Origin: Candidatus Poribacteria bacterium
GTDB lineage: Bacteria; Poribacteria; WGA-4E; WGA-3G
Direction of reading: 5' to 3'
Assembly (NCBI GenBank): GCA_965214095.1
Contig: OZ243938.1
Coordinates: forward strand, 1,760,001 to 1,824,000
DNA length: 64,000 bases
The position numbers and the translations under genes were made by a program. Below, piece by piece: positions 33,443 to 42,429 of this stretch. Within the stretch, counting starts at the first letter, position 1. The number at the start of each line of letters is the position of its first letter. Below the pieces are notes generated by a model. The model saw only the letters and a program-made list of their open reading frames with translations, was not told the DNA's origin and ran no database searches.

Positions 33443-34204
33443 CTATGATCTTCTCTTTAACGATGCCCAACGTAACGTTAGAGATTTATATTGAGAAGAG
33501 ATATTTTGACTATTATGTTGATTTTCTGAAGGGTGCAGTACTTCATGTCCATTCAAAAACCTACCATAAGGATAATTGTCTTCCTCATCATTTTGATCAT
33601 TTGAAAACCATTCTGGATGTTGATTATCTATATAGACATGAGAATGTTGACCATTATGGGTGTGCCATCCAAAATCACCATGTTTGTGTTCCCATTCATG
33701 CGTATGACTGACAACACTGACACCGTCAATATATTGTCCGATGTATTGAAGCGTATAGACACCACTCTCAACAGAATGATCCATGGCTTGATCGTCTAAT
33801 CTTCCAAGAATCTCTGATGCTATCTGGGAATCAGAAATTCTGGCATAAAGAACAACGTGCTTATGGCTACTACCATCATGTGTATGAACTTCACCACTGA
33901 CAAAATGAAGGTTTAGCGGACACGTTACCCAATCTTTTTTGGCTTCATTATGTTCGTGATTGTTCCACAATTCTATCTCATTATGGACAACTTCATTTGG
34001 AAGTGAATTGTCAATTGCATGTCGATGCTGCTTACCATCTGATGTATGTTGATGGAAAGGTGTTAAGTACACCTCATTGTTGCCATCATAGGTCTGGTTG
34101 TGGTTATCATGAGCATTGGAATCGATTGATACTATACAGGTAACTGTTAACACCAAAATGCAGGCTGTGAGGTATTTCGCTTTGGCAAAAAGTATGTTTT
34201 TCAT
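33443..34204 (-). CDS. secreted His-rich protein with LTLRWASLK tail
   Basis: RBS GGAG, signal peptide, repeated HxH..G..HxH units. Confidence 0.75.
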   Translation of the reverse strand: MKNILFAKAKYLTACILVLTVTCIVSIDSNAHDNHNQTYDGNNEVYLTPFHQHTSDGKQHRHAIDNSLPNEVVHNEIELWNNHEHNEAKKDWVTCPLNLHFVSGEVHTHDGSSHKHVVLYARISDSQIASEILGRLDDQAMDHSVESGVYTLQYIGQYIDGVSVVSHTHEWEHKHGDFGWHTHNGQHSHVYIDNQHPEWFSNDQNDEEDNYPYGRFLNGHEVLHPSENQHNSQNISSQYKSLTLRWASLKRRS

Positions 34205-34516: not shown

Positions 34517-35887
34517 TTAGAAAAACGTTAAATAAGGTTTTTCCTCAATCTCTCGTAATAACAATAGTGCAAGTTCACGGGCATGATAATCACCCCACAT
34601 GGATGCTTCTCCACAGGGAATCTTCCTGCCTTCTGGAACGTAATCCCATCCATTCGGACGATGGTATACTGAGTGTAGCAGTAATCCTTGGTGCGTATCG
34701 GAAGTGGAGAGATACGGCTCAGCAAACAGTGTATTGACAACCGTCAATCCTGCTTGATAATATGTGTTACCTGCCTCTGTATTGCCATGCTTCTTATGAT
34801 AATTTCCAAGTCGGATAAGTCCTTGTGCTGCAATTGCAGCGGCAGAACTATCCACCGGTTCATAATCGTTATATGGATCAGCAGGGGCAGCCAGATAATC
34901 GCCAAGTTCTGCTAAACCGGGGGCACCTGTATCCCAATAAGGTATGCCATCTTCTGCCGTGTTTTCAATATAGAAATCAGCAGTTGCTTCTGCTGCTTTT
35001 CGCATGTGTGCTGTTGCTTCAGCATAACCACCATAAGGTTCAAGATCTGTTTCTGACAGTGTATCAAAAAACTCAAGTTGTTCTGCATAACCTGTGATAA
35101 TCCATGCCAACCCTCGCGTCCAAGTTGTAAAAGGTGAGTAGCCTTGTTGCGTACTTGGACAACGGAAGTTTCCATCATTCGTATTGAAGATTGACTCATG
35201 CACAACACGTCCCCGTATGTCATAGGCATCGCGACTTTCACCATAATAGACATTATACTTTGCTGTTGTCTGTGAATGCTGAACGAGCCTATCCAACAGA
35301 TTGAAAGCGACATCACCTTCACCCATTAGCACAGCACCGAGTGTGTGACCGACTGCTAAAACACGCAGTGAACGGATGGTATCAGAGAAAAGTGAATGTG
35401 GTCCATTGAAAGATGCAATATATCCTGTTCCATCTTTTATTTCTGTCCAACGACTGGCTTGCACGGCTGCGGATGCTTTCAATGCGATTTCATAGAAATG
35501 CATTTCATTGTCGTCCCACGGAATAACCTTTTCACGCATCAATCTGCGAAGGTTGCCGTAAGTGGAGACATTGTTAAACCCGTGGTCATGCACACCGATA
35601 TGCGTGACATGTGGTGCCATCTTCTCAATCGTGTTCTTTCTGCCGATGTCAAGGAATTGCTCATCACCGGTAGCATCAAATTGTAGAATAGCCGAACCGA
35701 ACTGGAAACCTTGTGTCCACTCAGTCCATCCCCGAGTGGTATATTGTCCAGCAACTGTAAAGACAGGTGTGCCATTTTCTGGTTGCCAAGTGTTTTCAAT
35801 AGCCAGTATTTTTTGACCTGAGAGTTCAAAAAGGCTTTCTATCTGTGGTTTTAAGTCCTGAATTTGTAATGAATGATTTATCTGCAT
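34517..35887 (-). CDS. glycoside hydrolase family 88-like (unsaturated glucuronyl hydrolase)
   Basis: WTQGF, HDHGF, QGY..TWTRGLAW, PYWD, DSSAAAIAA, WGDY. Confidence 0.85.
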   Translation of the reverse strand: MQINHSLQIQDLKPQIESLFELSGQKILAIENTWQPENGTPVFTVAGQYTTRGWTEWTQGFQFGSAILQFDATGDEQFLDIGRKNTIEKMAPHVTHIGVHDHGFNNVSTYGNLRRLMREKVIPWDDNEMHFYEIALKASAAVQASRWTEIKDGTGYIASFNGPHSLFSDTIRSLRVLAVGHTLGAVLMGEGDVAFNLLDRLVQHSQTTAKYNVYYGESRDAYDIRGRVVHESIFNTNDGNFRCPSTQQGYSPFTTWTRGLAWIITGYAEQLEFFDTLSETDLEPYGGYAEATAHMRKAAEATADFYIENTAEDGIPYWDTGAPGLAELGDYLAAPADPYNDYEPVDSSAAAIAAQGLIRLGNYHKKHGNTEAGNTYYQAGLTVVNTLFAEPYLSTSDTHQGLLLHSVYHRPNGWDYVPEGRKIPCGEASMWGDYHARELALLLLREIEEKPYLTFF

Positions 35888-35936: not shown

Positions 35937-36425
35937 TCAAGAGCTCCCATAACGTTCACATATAACTTCAATGAGATTCGTTGTGGATTTGCCCGGTACG
36001 TTGAGTCCAACGACAACTTTGCCTCCATTTTTCTCAACGATATCTCTTTCAATGAGTTGTTCCAACTTATAGTCGCCACCTTTGACATGGATATTCGGTT
36101 TGAGTTCTGCAAGTAATTCAACCGGTGTTAATTCTGAGAAGATGACGACAAAATCAACGCATCCTAAGCCTGCAAGCATTTCTGCGCGTTCAACATCAGG
36201 AATTAGAGGACGGTTTTCACCTTTTAGTTCTCTGACAGAACTATCACTGTTGACTGCAACTACAAGCACGTCCCCTTGTTGACGTGCGGCTTGTAGATAG
36301 CGTAAATGTCCTAAATGCAGAACATCAAAGCAACCGTTCGTGGTGACGACAACTTTACCGTCTGCTCTGAGTTGTTGGAGTATTGCTGCAAGTTCGTTGC
36401 GTTGATATATCTTGTTTGGTGTCAT
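35937..36425 (-). CDS. rfaE2: D-glycero-beta-D-manno-heptose 1-phosphate adenylyltransferase
   Basis: TNGCFDVLHLGH, NSDSSVRELKG..RP, VKGGDY, STT. Confidence 0.92.
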   Translation of the reverse strand: MTPNKIYQRNELAAILQQLRADGKVVVTTNGCFDVLHLGHLRYLQAARQQGDVLVVAVNSDSSVRELKGENRPLIPDVERAEMLAGLGCVDFVVIFSELTPVELLAELKPNIHVKGGDYKLEQLIERDIVEKNGGKVVVGLNVPGKSTTNLIEVICERYGSS

Positions 36426-36552
36426 AATTTTAAAAGTTTATCACGCTTTGTATCGTTTGGCAACTTGGTTTTTGTTTATACATTATTGCACAATCTCACT
36501 GCATTTGCTATAATAATTGGTAATGCAAGAGACAATAATCACATTGAGAAAA

Positions 36553-36669
36553 TAATACCATTTCTATAAATGTTTATCCCATTAACATTTGTTAAGAATG
36601 TCTTGAAGGACTGCACAAACTGGCAGTTTATGCTACAAGAATGCGGCGTTTTCTATTAGAAATGGTATA
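36553..36669. repeat. ATACCATTTCT...AGAAATGGTAT shell with REP core G
   Basis: Inverted arms; hairpin GCACAAACTGGCAGTTTATGC + TAC at 36613-36636; abuts the RBS of the next gene. Confidence 0.75.
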
Positions 36670-36680
36670 AGGAGAAATAG

Positions 36681-37841
36681 ATGGATGACAAAAGAGGTAC
36701 AGCACATCCCTCCCTGTCCATAAGCACGTTGGGTGCGTCTGGACATGGTAAAACAACGTTGACAGCTGCTATTGCGAGAGTCGTTGCGAAAATCGGTTCT
36801 ATTCTTTCTAAAGTTGACACGCCATTTGATCAACTGATACCCAATCACCATCCTATACGAGAAGGGGTAAGCATTACCTATCGTTCAATAGATTACGAAA
36901 CCAGTGGAAAACACTATACACAGATTGACTGCGAAACACACTTGGATATTGTTAAGATGTTAGTCACTCGTTCATTTGCCGTTCAGGGGGCAATTTGGGT
37001 GGTTGATGCTGTTGATGGTGTTACAGAGGAATCCGCAGAACATATACACATTGCAAATAGATTAAATATACCTACGGTTGTCTCCTTTCTCAATACACGG
37101 AATTCTGCAATTGATGATGAACTTATAGATATTTGCAAACAAGAGATGCGCGAATTACTTACCGAAAATGGATGGGATGAAGTGAACAATCCTATCATCG
37201 TTGGTGATGCAAATAAGGCGTTAAAATACAAAGGTGATCGGATAGACTCTCAGCAATGGAAACCGATTGTTGATTTGATATTTGCCATGAATCGGTGTAT
37301 GCCAAAACCCATCAATATGGATAGCCTTCCCCCAATTATGCCGATCTATGAGATTGTTGAGGAGCAGAAAGAACGCGTAACTATAAAGGGTGAACTAGTT
37401 CAAGGACACCTTGCTGTCGGACATGCTGTAGATATTGTCGGTAAAGGTGATAGAATCAAGACAAAGTGTCTTAGCATAAGAGAGGATGAAGTTTGTGTTG
37501 AATCAGAACCTGATTGGTTGTCTGTTGGACAGGTGCTGTGTCATCCGAAAACAATAAAAGCACATTCTGATTTTACTGCCCTCGTGTATCTTCTGACACA
37601 AGAAGAAAGCGGTACGCATATCCCGCTGATTGAAAATGACAAACCTGAGATACGTCTATGGGGTGTTGATATATCAGCGCGCCTACATCTTCCTACAGAT
37701 ATATCAATCGTCTCTCCAGGTGAGAATGCTCATGTTTCGTTTACGCTTGAACTACCTCTTGCAATGGAGATAGGGACGACTTTTGAAATAAAGAAGATGG
37801 GATCGCGGATAGGACTCGGTGTTGTTACGTCGGTAGATTAG
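36681..37841 (+). CDS. highly divergent elongation factor Tu paralogue
   Basis: Colinear with all three EF-Tu domains (HGKTTLTAAI, YETSGKHYTQIDC, MRELL, GQVL, VYLLTQEESG, PGEN, PLAME) with degenerate G motifs; RBS AAGGAG. Confidence 0.85.
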   Translation: MDDKRGTAHPSLSISTLGASGHGKTTLTAAIARVVAKIGSILSKVDTPFDQLIPNHHPIREGVSITYRSIDYETSGKHYTQIDCETHLDIVKMLVTRSFAVQGAIWVVDAVDGVTEESAEHIHIANRLNIPTVVSFLNTRNSAIDDELIDICKQEMRELLTENGWDEVNNPIIVGDANKALKYKGDRIDSQQWKPIVDLIFAMNRCMPKPINMDSLPPIMPIYEIVEEQKERVTIKGELVQGHLAVGHAVDIVGKGDRIKTKCLSIREDEVCVESEPDWLSVGQVLCHPKTIKAHSDFTALVYLLTQEESGTHIPLIENDKPEIRLWGVDISARLHLPTDISIVSPGENAHVSFTLELPLAMEIGTTFEIKKMGSRIGLGVVTSVD

Positions 37842-37845
37842 ATTT

Positions 37846-38553
37846 CTACTGTGCAGCGGTGATGGTATCAGATAGAATTAGGTCGCCTGTGTACAGTGCG
37901 CGTCCAATAATCGCACCATAAGCATCAATGCTCTTTAGTGCTTCAATGTCTGATAGTGATGTAACACCACCCGATGCAATCACATCGGCAGAAACAGCGT
38001 TGATTATATCCGCAGTTGCGTTGACATTAGGTCCCTTGAGCATGCCATCGCTTTTGATGTCTGTATAAATGATAGTTTGTACTTCTGTCATCTCCATAGC
38101 AAATTCTACTGCAGATTTCTGAGAAACTTCTAACCATCCGTGCGTAGCGACCATACCGTCCTTTGCGTCAATGCCAACTGCAATTCGTTCACCATGCTTT
38201 TCACAAGCCTGTTTCACTAAATTCGGTTGTTTGAGTGCAGCAGTGCCTAATATTGCCCGATGCACACCTAATGCTAACACGGTATCTATATGTTCCATAC
38301 TACGGATGCCACCACCAAGTTGAGTTGGAATATCAAGGGTATCAACGATTTCACGGACAATATGAAGGTTTGCTGATTCGCCTTGAAATGCCCCATCTAA
38401 ATCAACAAGATGTAGGTATTCTGCCCCCTCTGCTTGCCACTGTTTTGCCATCTCAACTGGAGAATCAGAGAATACAGTTTCCTGTTCTGCTATCCCCTGG
38501 ATGAGATTTACACATTTTCCACCACGTAGATCTATAGCTGGTAATATCTGCAA
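37846..38553 (-). CDS. hisA: ProFAR isomerase
   Basis: PAIDLRGGKCV, LHLVDLDGA, LGGGIR, YTDIKSDGML.GPN, IASGGV. Confidence 0.95.
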   Translation of the reverse strand: MQILPAIDLRGGKCVNLIQGIAEQETVFSDSPVEMAKQWQAEGAEYLHLVDLDGAFQGESANLHIVREIVDTLDIPTQLGGGIRSMEHIDTVLALGVHRAILGTAALKQPNLVKQACEKHGERIAVGIDAKDGMVATHGWLEVSQKSAVEFAMEMTEVQTIIYTDIKSDGMLKGPNVNATADIINAVSADVIASGGVTSLSDIEALKSIDAYGAIIGRALYTGDLILSDTITAAQ

Positions 38554-41487: not shown

Positions 41488-42429
41488 TTGCATAATCACC
41501 AACATCATCACAATCCAGACGAACCACATGTTCACCACCATCAACACACGCTTCAGAAGAAATTTAGACTTGCCCTGTTGGTCACCTTTTTTGTATTCGT
41601 TGTAGAGTTGATTGGTGGCATTTGGTCGGGGAGTCTTGCGTTGTTAAGTGATGCTGCACATGTGATGTCGGATGTGCTATCCCTTCTGATCAGCTGGTTT
41701 GCAATATATCTCTCAACGCGCCCTGCCACCTCATCTCGCACCTTCGGTTATCATCGTGCTGAAGTATTTGCTGCATTCATCAATGGTGTATCTTTAATTG
41801 GCATATCTGGTTGGATATTCTATGAAGCATACCGAAGATACATGTCTCCAGAGGAGATTCGAGTAACCGGCATGTTTGTTGTTGCAAGTTTTGGATTAGT
41901 AGCGAACCTGTTTATCTTGTGGAAACTGCATGGCCATAGCCATGGCAATCTAAATGTGCGAAGTGCAGTGCTTCATGTAGTCGGAGATACGCTTTCATCG
42001 GTGGCTGTTGTTATTGGTGGTCTGATTATATATTGGACAAAATGGTATCCTATTGATGCTATCCTCAGTTTCCTAATCGGCGGGATAATACTCTTCGGTG
42101 CATTTAATGTAACCAGAGAAGCAGTTCATATTCTGTTGGAGAACACTCCACGAAATACGGATGCACATACCGTAGCAAAACATATATGTGATTTAGCATC
42201 TGTGAAGGATGTTCATGATATGCATATTTGGTCTCTGTGTTCAAACTACAATGCATTGAGTGCTCATATAGTGCTTGATGAAAACACTACGCTTGCTCAG
42301 GACCAAATTCTTGAACAGATTAACACAGTATTACAAAATCAGTTTAATATCAACCACACAACGCTCCAACTTGAGCAGATTGCGTGTACACAGGCAGGTA
42401 ACTTACTGTGCAATGCACAACATTCGTAG
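41488..42429 (+). CDS. cation diffusion facilitator (CzcD/ZitB-like)
   Basis: SLALLSDAAH..D, TFGYHRAE, HGHSHG NLNVRSAVLHVVGD, VHDMHIW. Confidence 0.92.
   Translation: MHNHQHHHNPDEPHVHHHQHTLQKKFRLALLVTFFVFVVELIGGIWSGSLALLSDAAHVMSDVLSLLISWFAIYLSTRPATSSRTFGYHRAEVFAAFINGVSLIGISGWIFYEAYRRYMSPEEIRVTGMFVVASFGLVANLFILWKLHGHSHGNLNVRSAVLHVVGDTLSSVAVVIGGLIIYWTKWYPIDAILSFLIGGIILFGAFNVTREAVHILLENTPRNTDAHTVAKHICDLASVKDVHDMHIWSLCSNYNALSAHIVLDENTTLAQDQILEQINTVLQNQFNINHTTLQLEQIACTQAGNLLCNAQHS

Follow-up and report, generated by a model that had tools for sequence, protein, structure and literature searches.

Few proteins are as conserved or as well studied as EF-Tu. Here we describe a divergent paralogue of it, encoded in a 64,000-nucleotide stretch of the genome of a Candidatus Poribacteria bacterium (GenBank assembly GCA_965214095.1, contig OZ243938.1, positions 1,760,001 to 1,824,000 of the forward strand), hereafter called the window. 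The gene occupies positions 36681..37841 of the plus strand as an uninterrupted open reading frame (ORF) of 386 amino acids (aa) plus stop, starting with ATG. A preliminary description, made from the letters of the window alone, had presented it as an intact three-domain EF-Tu paralogue with a ribosome-binding site, located outside any ribosomal operon; the ORF, an upstream AAGGAG and the neighbouring genes, none of which is ribosomal, all agree with that account. The motif strings quoted there, GASGHGKT, REGVSI (switch I, residues 60-65), DCETH and NTRN, stand exactly so in the translation. The features of the gene are given below, the domain-wise ratios of nonsynonymous to synonymous substitution rates (dN/dS) having been obtained from 30 genes.

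36681..37841 (+): coding sequence of the EF-Tu-derived paralogue, recognised by its ORF, by EF-Tu homology below the equivalog cut-off and by a dN/dS of about 0.10
36681..37295 (+): G-like domain, residues 1-205, with Pfam GTP_EFTU over residues 12-195; dN/dS 0.134
36732..36755 (+): G1/P-loop GASGHGKT, residues 18-25, in which GxxxxGK[ST] is kept
36927..36941 (+): G3/switch II DCETH, residues 83-87, with the Asp kept, the DxxG Gly replaced by Thr and a His at the catalytic-His position
37092..37103 (+): G4 NTRN, residues 138-141 of the translation, replacing NKxD
37296..37550 (+): remodelled domain II, residues 206-290, with the motifs VDIVGKGDRIKT.C and EPDW and without a Pfam D2 match; dN/dS 0.061
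37476..37508 (+): short linker SIREDEVCVES, which in alignments occupies the place of the canonical EMF...GRAGDNIG...LLRG hairpin
37551..37838 (+): domain III, residues 291-386, with the motifs EESGTHIPLIENDKPE..LW and FE.KKM and Pfam GTP_EFTU_D3 over residues 291-385; dN/dS 0.096
36669..36674 (+): Shine-Dalgarno-like AAGGAG, read from the sequence, ending six bases before the ATG

Across the family alignments, the two domain II motifs are nearly invariant, and domain III residues H313, P315, D320, W327 and K372 are invariant, while the linker position carries variable acidic inserts in other branches of the family. No signal peptide is visible at the N-terminus, and nothing in the sequence points to export. 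An Rfam search of positions 36300-38000 gave no match at E <= 0.1.

Relationship to EF-Tu

Profile searches recognise GTP_EFTU (73.4 bits) and GTP_EFTU_D3 (49.2 bits) in the paralogue and give no match to GTP_EFTU_D2. The top PDB sequence matches are all EF-Tu, with E of about 1e-63, and a search of the ESM Atlas returned ordinary EF-Tu clusters only. The score against the EF-Tu equivalog TIGR00485, 228.9 bits, lies below the cut-off of 522.4, and that against the SelB model TIGR00475, 41.7 bits, lies below the cut-off of 242.25. Residue 386, in domain III, is the last of the protein, which is without the C-terminal winged-helix domains of the SelB type, as the preliminary description had pointed out; a separate 652-aa SelB-like ORF is present in the same genome. 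A three-domain architecture is given by the Pfam G domain and D3 together with an AlphaFold2 model that matches EF-Tu over all three domains.

The genome (5.25 Mb, 94.5% complete) holds one canonical tuf (715 bits), located in the str operon, directly downstream of rpsL, rpsG and fusA and upstream of the S10 operon, which provides the canonical copy that had been expected elsewhere in the genome. Between its product and the paralogue there is 32% identity. The domain II stretch MFNKFLDEGRAGDNIGALLRGV of the canonical protein is replaced in the paralogue by a REDEVCVES linker, leaving a gap of 14 or 19 columns depending on the alignment, in agreement with the earlier observation that the stretch lining the aminoacyl-end pocket is largely deleted. 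The paralogue has the fold and size of EF-Tu and retains the P-loop GxxxxGKT together with the Asp of G3 and the Asn of G4, and D145, E147, L148 and E155 of helix D are identical even in the P-loop-less family members described below. In contrast to canonical EF-Tu, the paralogue is without the G2 Thr, the G3 Gly, NKxD and SAL, has its domain II hairpin replaced and lies outside the str operon.

Motif losses across the family

An alignment of 172 distinct family members served as a motif census. Every member (172/172) has a P-loop of the form GxxxxGK[ST], an Asp in G3 and an Asn in G4, while the DxxG Gly is found in a single member (1/172) and NKxD in two (2/172). Thr does not occur in the G2 column (0/172), which instead reads Gly in 115 members, Ser in 38 and Tyr in 16, the protein of the window having Ser. 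SAL has become GDA in 150/172, and the catalytic-His position is occupied by His in 147/172, the remainder having Asn, Tyr, Asp, Gln or Pro. The losses of the G2 Thr, the G3 Gly and the G4 NKxD noted for the single protein therefore hold family-wide. G1, which had been placed in the same list of losses, does not belong there, since GASGHGKT fits the Walker A pattern that all 172 members keep, only the EF-Tu-specific His, Val and Asp being changed.

At G4, positions two to four vary freely, even inside one genus, with NTGG in 45 members, NTRN in 34, NKAE in 15, NTDG in 11, NTHN in 10 and others, including NQTE, in the rest. Because these residues drift among close relatives, no base-recognising residue is under selection, which argues against a straightforward change in nucleotide specificity.

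Residues at the positions which in EF-Tu form the aminoacyl pocket and contact the tRNA backbone are also replaced. The Arg of EF-Tu FYFR(TTD) is Trp in 172/172 members; HVEY, IEDIF and GRGTV read AIDY, IYEIV and KERVT in the alignment; GGRxxPF has become SGTHIPL, and REGG has become KKMG. These replacements are family-specific and well conserved. With the pocket hairpin deleted as well, the paralogue would lack the residues by which EF-Tu holds aminoacyl-tRNA, in keeping with the loss of aminoacyl-tRNA binding predicted in the preliminary description.

The pseudoenzyme literature uses pseudoGTPase for proteins with a GTPase fold in which motifs for catalysis or nucleotide binding have disappeared. 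Taking together the predicted fold, the presence of at least one G motif that is incompatible with GTP binding or hydrolysis, and the selection indicated by dN/dS, the paralogue is a predicted pseudoGTPase.

Distribution, selection and origin

When 176 genomes of the phylum were searched in six frames, with follow-up searches, the paralogue was located in 153 of the 159 genomes of one poribacterial order, as a single intact copy and always beside canonical tuf. By family, the counts are 111/112 in f1, which includes the genome of the window, 11/11 in f2, 28/29 in f3, where one paralogue is represented only by fragments on small contigs, and 3/7 in f4. Outside the order, families f6 and f7 have one genome each with a less degenerate relative beside canonical tuf, and families f8-f11 have tuf and SelB only. 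A large protein database contains more than 120 clusters (383-401 aa, 66-94% identity), of which the few named ones are all 'Candidatus Poribacteria'; the family was seen in Poribacteria only. In three genomes of family f5 (G004, G005 and G006; 76-95% complete), no EF-Tu-like match was obtained at E <= 1e-20 with either the paralogue or tuf as query; their tuf region may be missing from the assemblies.

An open frame of 386-407 aa is present in 40/40 extracted paralogue loci. Pairwise Nei-Gojobori comparison within the genus to which the window belongs (23 genomes; 242 of 253 pairs finite) gave a median dN/dS of 0.08-0.11 for the paralogue versus 0.02-0.03 for tuf in the same genomes, and a median dN of 0.13 versus 0.026 over the same genome pairs, a difference of about five times. 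Domain II is the most constrained part of the protein, while helix D, with a dN/dS of 0.16, is not especially constrained as a whole. A dN/dS of about 0.10 and orthologues in 153/159 genomes agree with the earlier proposal of a repurposed pseudo-GTPase and mark the paralogue as selected and not decaying.

In a tree of 37 rows (LG+C20), 13 order-level paralogues form one clade with support of 100/100. Paralogues and the intermediates described below are together split from all canonical EF-Tus by a 100/100 branch of length 0.91, indicating a single origin of the family. On the other side of this branch lie the canonical EF-Tus, 10 of them poribacterial and seven from elsewhere, and four further degenerate EF-Tu-like proteins. 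In the free tree, the family attaches outside all canonical EF-Tus, a placement that may be a long-branch effect, and a clade of the paralogues with poribacterial tuf was not rejected by the approximately unbiased test (p = 0.091). Duplication within the phylum and an older or foreign origin are both compatible with these trees.

A graded series of degeneration

The less degenerate relatives from the sister families f6 and f7 are intermediates, and they belong to a small subfamily of 14 metagenome clusters in the database, of which all three named ones are Poribacteria. They share 40-43% identity with tuf and 34-35% with the protein of the window. The P-loop is kept in the 11 of the 14 clusters where it is readable and NKxD in 13/14, while the DxxG Gly is lost in 14/14 (DCVNH, DCVDH). 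GSA is kept in the three members that were aligned, and YETSGK is already present in the intermediates, as is the Trp of domain III.

Within the order, G4 differs by branch, reading NKAD in one f4 member (L043), NKxE in f3, NQxE in f2 and NTxx in f1. One member, from the f4 genome G058 (L082:1489-2646, 386 aa), is without a P-loop, having a three-residue deletion at this place (VVG-EKSNDL) and IDQP at G4. Its relatives in the database are P0306 (91% identical, 57 member sequences), P0307 (49%) and P0308 (48%, 141 member sequences). The four form a subclade with mutual identities of 48-91% in which the protein is of full length and the family motifs of domains II and III are kept. Since this P-loop-less subclade keeps the protein, nucleotide binding is dispensable for its function there.

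Read from these sequences, the order of losses is predicted to run from switch coupling and tRNA contacts, through base recognition, to phosphate binding. In a first step, the DxxG Gly and the tRNA-contacting residues of domain III would have been lost; in a second, G5, G2 and the domain II hairpin; in a third, NKxD; and in a fourth, confined to one branch, the P-loop. Such a series, from switch-dead proteins that would still bind guanine nucleotides through base-blind to P-loop-less ones, would offer a ready system for studying how pseudoenzymes evolve from essential enzymes. It also bears on how EF-Tu surfaces may work without a GTPase cycle and on roles of EF-Tu-GDP beyond awaiting EF-Ts.

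Predicted structure

AlphaFold2, given a family alignment of 72 rows, modelled the paralogue with a mean predicted local distance difference test (pLDDT) of 92.4 and a predicted template modelling score (pTM) of 0.89. Switch I appears in this model as a confident beta-hairpin, with strands 55-60 and 63-74 at pLDDT above 90. The best PDB matches found by Foldseek are open EF-Tu-GDP structures (1EFC, 1TUI, 1D8T and 6MIJ), with template modelling (TM) scores of 0.85-0.89; EF-Tu-GDP on Balon-bound ribosomes (8RDW and 8V9L) is matched as well, and no GTP-form EF-Tu is among the top matches listed. As a control, the genome's own EF-Tu was modelled by the same method from a 33-row alignment (pLDDT 83.7, pTM 0.70). 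In that model, switch I is helical and of low confidence, and the TM scores are 0.91-0.92 to the closed GTP forms 1EXM/1EFT/1TTT and 0.52-0.54 to GDP forms. The contrast between the open and the closed model supports a paralogue that is fixed in the open shape, as far as predicted states can indicate.

Interpretation and alternatives

We consider it fairly probable that the paralogue is a permanently open, EF-Tu-derived pseudo-GTPase that does not carry aminoacyl-tRNA and serves as a binding module, the translation apparatus being its most likely target. The protein would keep the three-domain body of EF-Tu, fixed in an open GDP-like shape, and would no longer sense or hydrolyse GTP, couple a gamma-phosphate to switch II, recognise guanine or bind aminoacyl-tRNA. 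A nucleotide or phosphate is probably still bound by the P-loop of most members, as a structural cofactor and not as a signal. Because the base-recognition residues drift and one subclade is without a P-loop, the nucleotide would not be the signal, and the selected function would then reside in the protein surfaces, above all in the remodelled domains II and III. The family would have arisen once, in an ancestor within Poribacteria.

Helix D of EF-Tu is the docking site of bL12 and EF-Ts. The constitutive binding module envisaged here would most likely target something that EF-Tu-GDP likewise encounters, for instance the ribosomal stalk/factor site or EF-Ts, in line with the EF-Ts or ribosome modulator suggested in the preliminary description. 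The retention of several helix D residues from canonical EF-Tu down to the P-loop-less members makes a shared partner of this kind a speculative candidate, with no special constraint on helix D as a whole. A more specific version, in which the protein mimics EF-Tu-GDP on the stalk/factor site or on EF-Ts and so throttles or parks translation in slow-growing sponge symbionts, seems to us rather unlikely. If true, it would amount to a hibernation-factor analogue made of protein alone, for which neither Balon nor a GTP/GDP signal would be required, and the family would be a natural stepwise record of an essential translational GTPase becoming a nucleotide-free pseudoenzyme. A bacterial EF-Tu-derived pseudo-GTPase as an order-wide core gene would add a new class to the proteins that are related to translation or mimic EF-Tu. 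The family proteins are small and soluble-looking, which would allow binding and structural work without cultivating Poribacteria.

The search for a partner included EF-Ts and Balon-type proteins. EF-Ts of this genome is a short 197-aa form (L094:1501-2091; G000:C1:2266564-2267154) and is single copy in 61/61 genomes of the order searched; the mechanical ORF call for it starts 56 codons upstream of the conserved start. Complex prediction from a 24-row EF-Ts alignment and 72 paralogue rows, run without controls, scored 0.26 and 0.28 against a mark of 0.32, which speaks neither for nor against an interaction. EF-Tu-GDP is reported to be present on Balon-bound ribosomes (PMC10901736). Pfam Host_attach (PF10116) and eRF1_3 (PF03465) were unmatched in the 94.5% complete genome, other aeRF1-like families not having been searched, while control genomes gave matches in the same search.

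Several observations weigh against the permanently open binding module. The 172 aligned members do not vary at the P-loop Lys/Thr or at the G3 Asp, and most have the catalytic-position His, a pattern that would leave room for some nucleotide-dependent activity in most of the family. Six genomes of the order have the canonical gene only, namely four from f4 (85-91% complete), one from f1 (86%) and one from f3, so that the protein is dispensable in some lineages. The open state is an AlphaFold prediction, and the depth of the alignments behind the two models differs, 72 versus 33 rows. Neither neighbourhood comparison nor the family search revealed a partner, and the f2, f3 and f4 loci have no neighbour in common with the window or across families. 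Evidence of transcription is weak as well. For a 93-95% related strain, four metatranscriptome runs from a single study provide RNA-library contigs that span the gene in full and include a 9-nt insertion known from 389-aa variants; one of these contigs also spans the convergent hisA, the contigs show no strand, and DNA carry-over is possible.

Among the alternatives, a working nucleotide switch of changed specificity (ATP, xanthosine triphosphate (XTP), ppGpp or any nucleoside triphosphate), perhaps carrying one special tRNA or other RNA, would make direct sense of the universally kept P-loop GxxxxGKT and G3 Asp and of the 147 members with the catalytic-position His. The Asn of the window's NTRN also falls at the position of the EF-Tu D138N substitution, which is reported to switch specificity to XTP. 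Specialised EF-Tu-like carriers of special tRNAs do exist, among them SelB and, in Methanosarcina, the SelB/EF-Tu/aIF2-gamma-like protein (PMC4329189). We nevertheless regard this alternative as unlikely, given that the DxxG Gly is absent from 171/172 members and the G2 Thr from all, that the residues at the tRNA-contact positions have changed and the pocket hairpin of domain II is missing, and that the model is predicted to be open. The altered nucleotide specificity put forward in the preliminary description is further weakened by G4 residues that are not conserved among close relatives (NTGG, NTRN, NTDG, NTHN, NKAE, NQTE) and by the subclade without a P-loop.

A moonlighting role of EF-Tu outside translation, whether chaperone-like, cytoskeleton- or MreB-associated, or in host adhesion at the cell surface, may instead have been taken over by the paralogue. 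Moonlighting by EF-Tu is documented (PMC6822514), and the function here is evidently independent of a GTPase cycle. The absence of any export sign or visible signal peptide, together with neighbours that give no hint, leaves this explanation improbable in our judgement.

The overall EF-Tu-GDP shape kept in the predicted model would also suit a decoy or sponge for EF-Tu-targeting toxins, antibiotics or phage factors in the dense sponge microbiome, shielding the genuine EF-Tu, a role also put forward in the preliminary description for toxins, and toxin complexes with EF-Tu are known in the best-matching form, such as 4ZV4 (Tse6) and 7VMC (CdiA/CdiI). A single-copy, vertically inherited core gene without defence-island context or conserved neighbour is not what this would predict, and PADLOC-DB defence models matched the paralogue with 0 families at E <= 0.01. 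The strongly remodelled surfaces, at 32% identity to the host EF-Tu, fit poorly with mimicry, and very high expression is not apparent from codon usage, a measure that is nearly uninformative in this genome. We hold a decoy to be quite improbable. A decaying, functionless duplicate, a pseudogene in the making, to which the lost GTPase motifs and the roughly fivefold faster protein evolution relative to tuf might have pointed, is refuted by the open frames at 40/40 loci, the dN/dS of about 0.10, the presence in 153/159 genomes and the invariant family motifs, and its probability is practically nil.

Comparison with known systems

Ski7 of yeast is a pseudo-GTPase of the eEF1A/Hbs1 family that binds GTP without hydrolysing it. 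It is by analogy the closest counterpart of the poribacterial paralogue, both being lineage-specific duplicates in the EF1 family without a GTPase cycle, with Ski7 serving as an adaptor. Ski7 differs in being eukaryotic and in acting through an N-terminal extension that the poribacterial protein does not have, and no orthology is implied. It is described as a recent Hbs1 paralogue (PMC4342817).

Among bacterial EF-Tu-like proteins, actEF-Tu alone is singled out as a 'clearly distinct' subfamily in a survey of translational GTPases from 2015 (PMC4342817). Like actEF-Tu and Streptomyces EF-Tu3, the poribacterial family represents an additional, divergent EF-Tu that a single bacterial lineage has retained. 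According to the same survey, the Streptomyces duplicates are condition-specific translation factors, that is, working EF-Tus (PMC4342817), whereas the poribacterial family is without the switch and tRNA-binding residues. SelB and the Methanosarcina protein MM1309 resemble it as EF-Tu-family paralogues specialised away from bulk decoding. SelB differs in having C-terminal mRNA-binding domains and intact GTPase motifs, and MM1309 is reported to bind GTP and Cys-tRNA (PMC4329189).

Degenerate EF-Tu-like proteins also occur outside Poribacteria. The Myxococcus 'GTP-binding protein' WP_267698135.1, of about 396 aa, is EF-Tu-like with the G3 Gly lost and G4 damaged (DPPSH, NKWR); proteins of this type form small clusters, are without YETSGK, GKGDRIKT and the domain III Trp, and are placed with canonical EF-Tus in the tree. 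None of P0164, P0130, P0148 and P0168 groups with the poribacterial family in the tree. P0164 and P0297-P0303 (Myxococcus), P0168 (a deltaproteobacterial metagenome-assembled genome), P0130 and P0148 are proteins of about 394-397 aa in which the DxxG Gly is lost and, in some, NKxD is damaged. At least one motif is absent or unaligned, in some cases through truncation, in 88 of 149 aligned EF-Tu-like representatives (150 listed). Degenerate EF-Tu paralogues may be a wider, unstudied phenomenon. No other comparably large, graded core-gene family was observed among the degenerate EF-Tu-like proteins compared, and a literature search, mainly at the level of abstracts, returned no description of a poribacterial or other bacterial EF-Tu-derived pseudo-GTPase.

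Leader region and genomic neighbourhood

Two further features lie upstream of the ribosome-binding site.

36487..36514 (+): promoter-like TGCACA-16-TATAAT with TG before the -10 element, a consensus match alone (10/12 positions)
36555..36668 (no strand assigned): 114-nt repeat resembling a miniature inverted-repeat transposable element (MITE), with 12-nt perfect terminal inverted repeats ATACCATTTCTA (arms 36555-36566 and 36657-36668)

Promoter-like matches of this kind numbered 11 in the region versus 4.4 expected. The MITE-like repeat sits in the leader of the paralogue, between the promoter-like site and the ribosome-binding site. It has at least 40 copies in the genome at 92-100% identity (40 scored, 142 candidates) and is absent from this place in the 93-95% related strain. 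Its depth in the RNA-library contigs is about tenfold that of the flanking sequence. The contigs of the related strain carry 131 extra letters at 36472/36473, in the same intergenic region, an insert that may be another small mobile repeat.

The gene is flanked by a divergent cytidylyltransferase-like gene and by a convergent hisA, with four bases between the stop codons, followed by sugar-transporter genes of the ATP-binding cassette type. The hisA and cytidylyltransferase neighbours are conserved within family f1 only. On a codon adaptation index that spans 0.66-0.73 over 1632 long ORFs, a nearly flat and little informative scale, tuf stands at the 77th and the paralogue at the 15th percentile.

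Elsewhere in the window, a 253-aa ORF at 33443-34204 (-) has a signal-peptide-like N-terminus, many His-rich motifs (HDNHNQ, HxHxxxH) and no Pfam match, and a gene of the cation diffusion facilitator (CDF) type, encoding a cation-efflux protein with a His-rich N-terminus, lies at 41488-42429. Both may be linked to metal handling. A 456-aa ORF at 34517-35887 (-), which has no Pfam match at E <= 0.001, encodes a strongly conserved protein that is 87.5% identical in another genus of the family.

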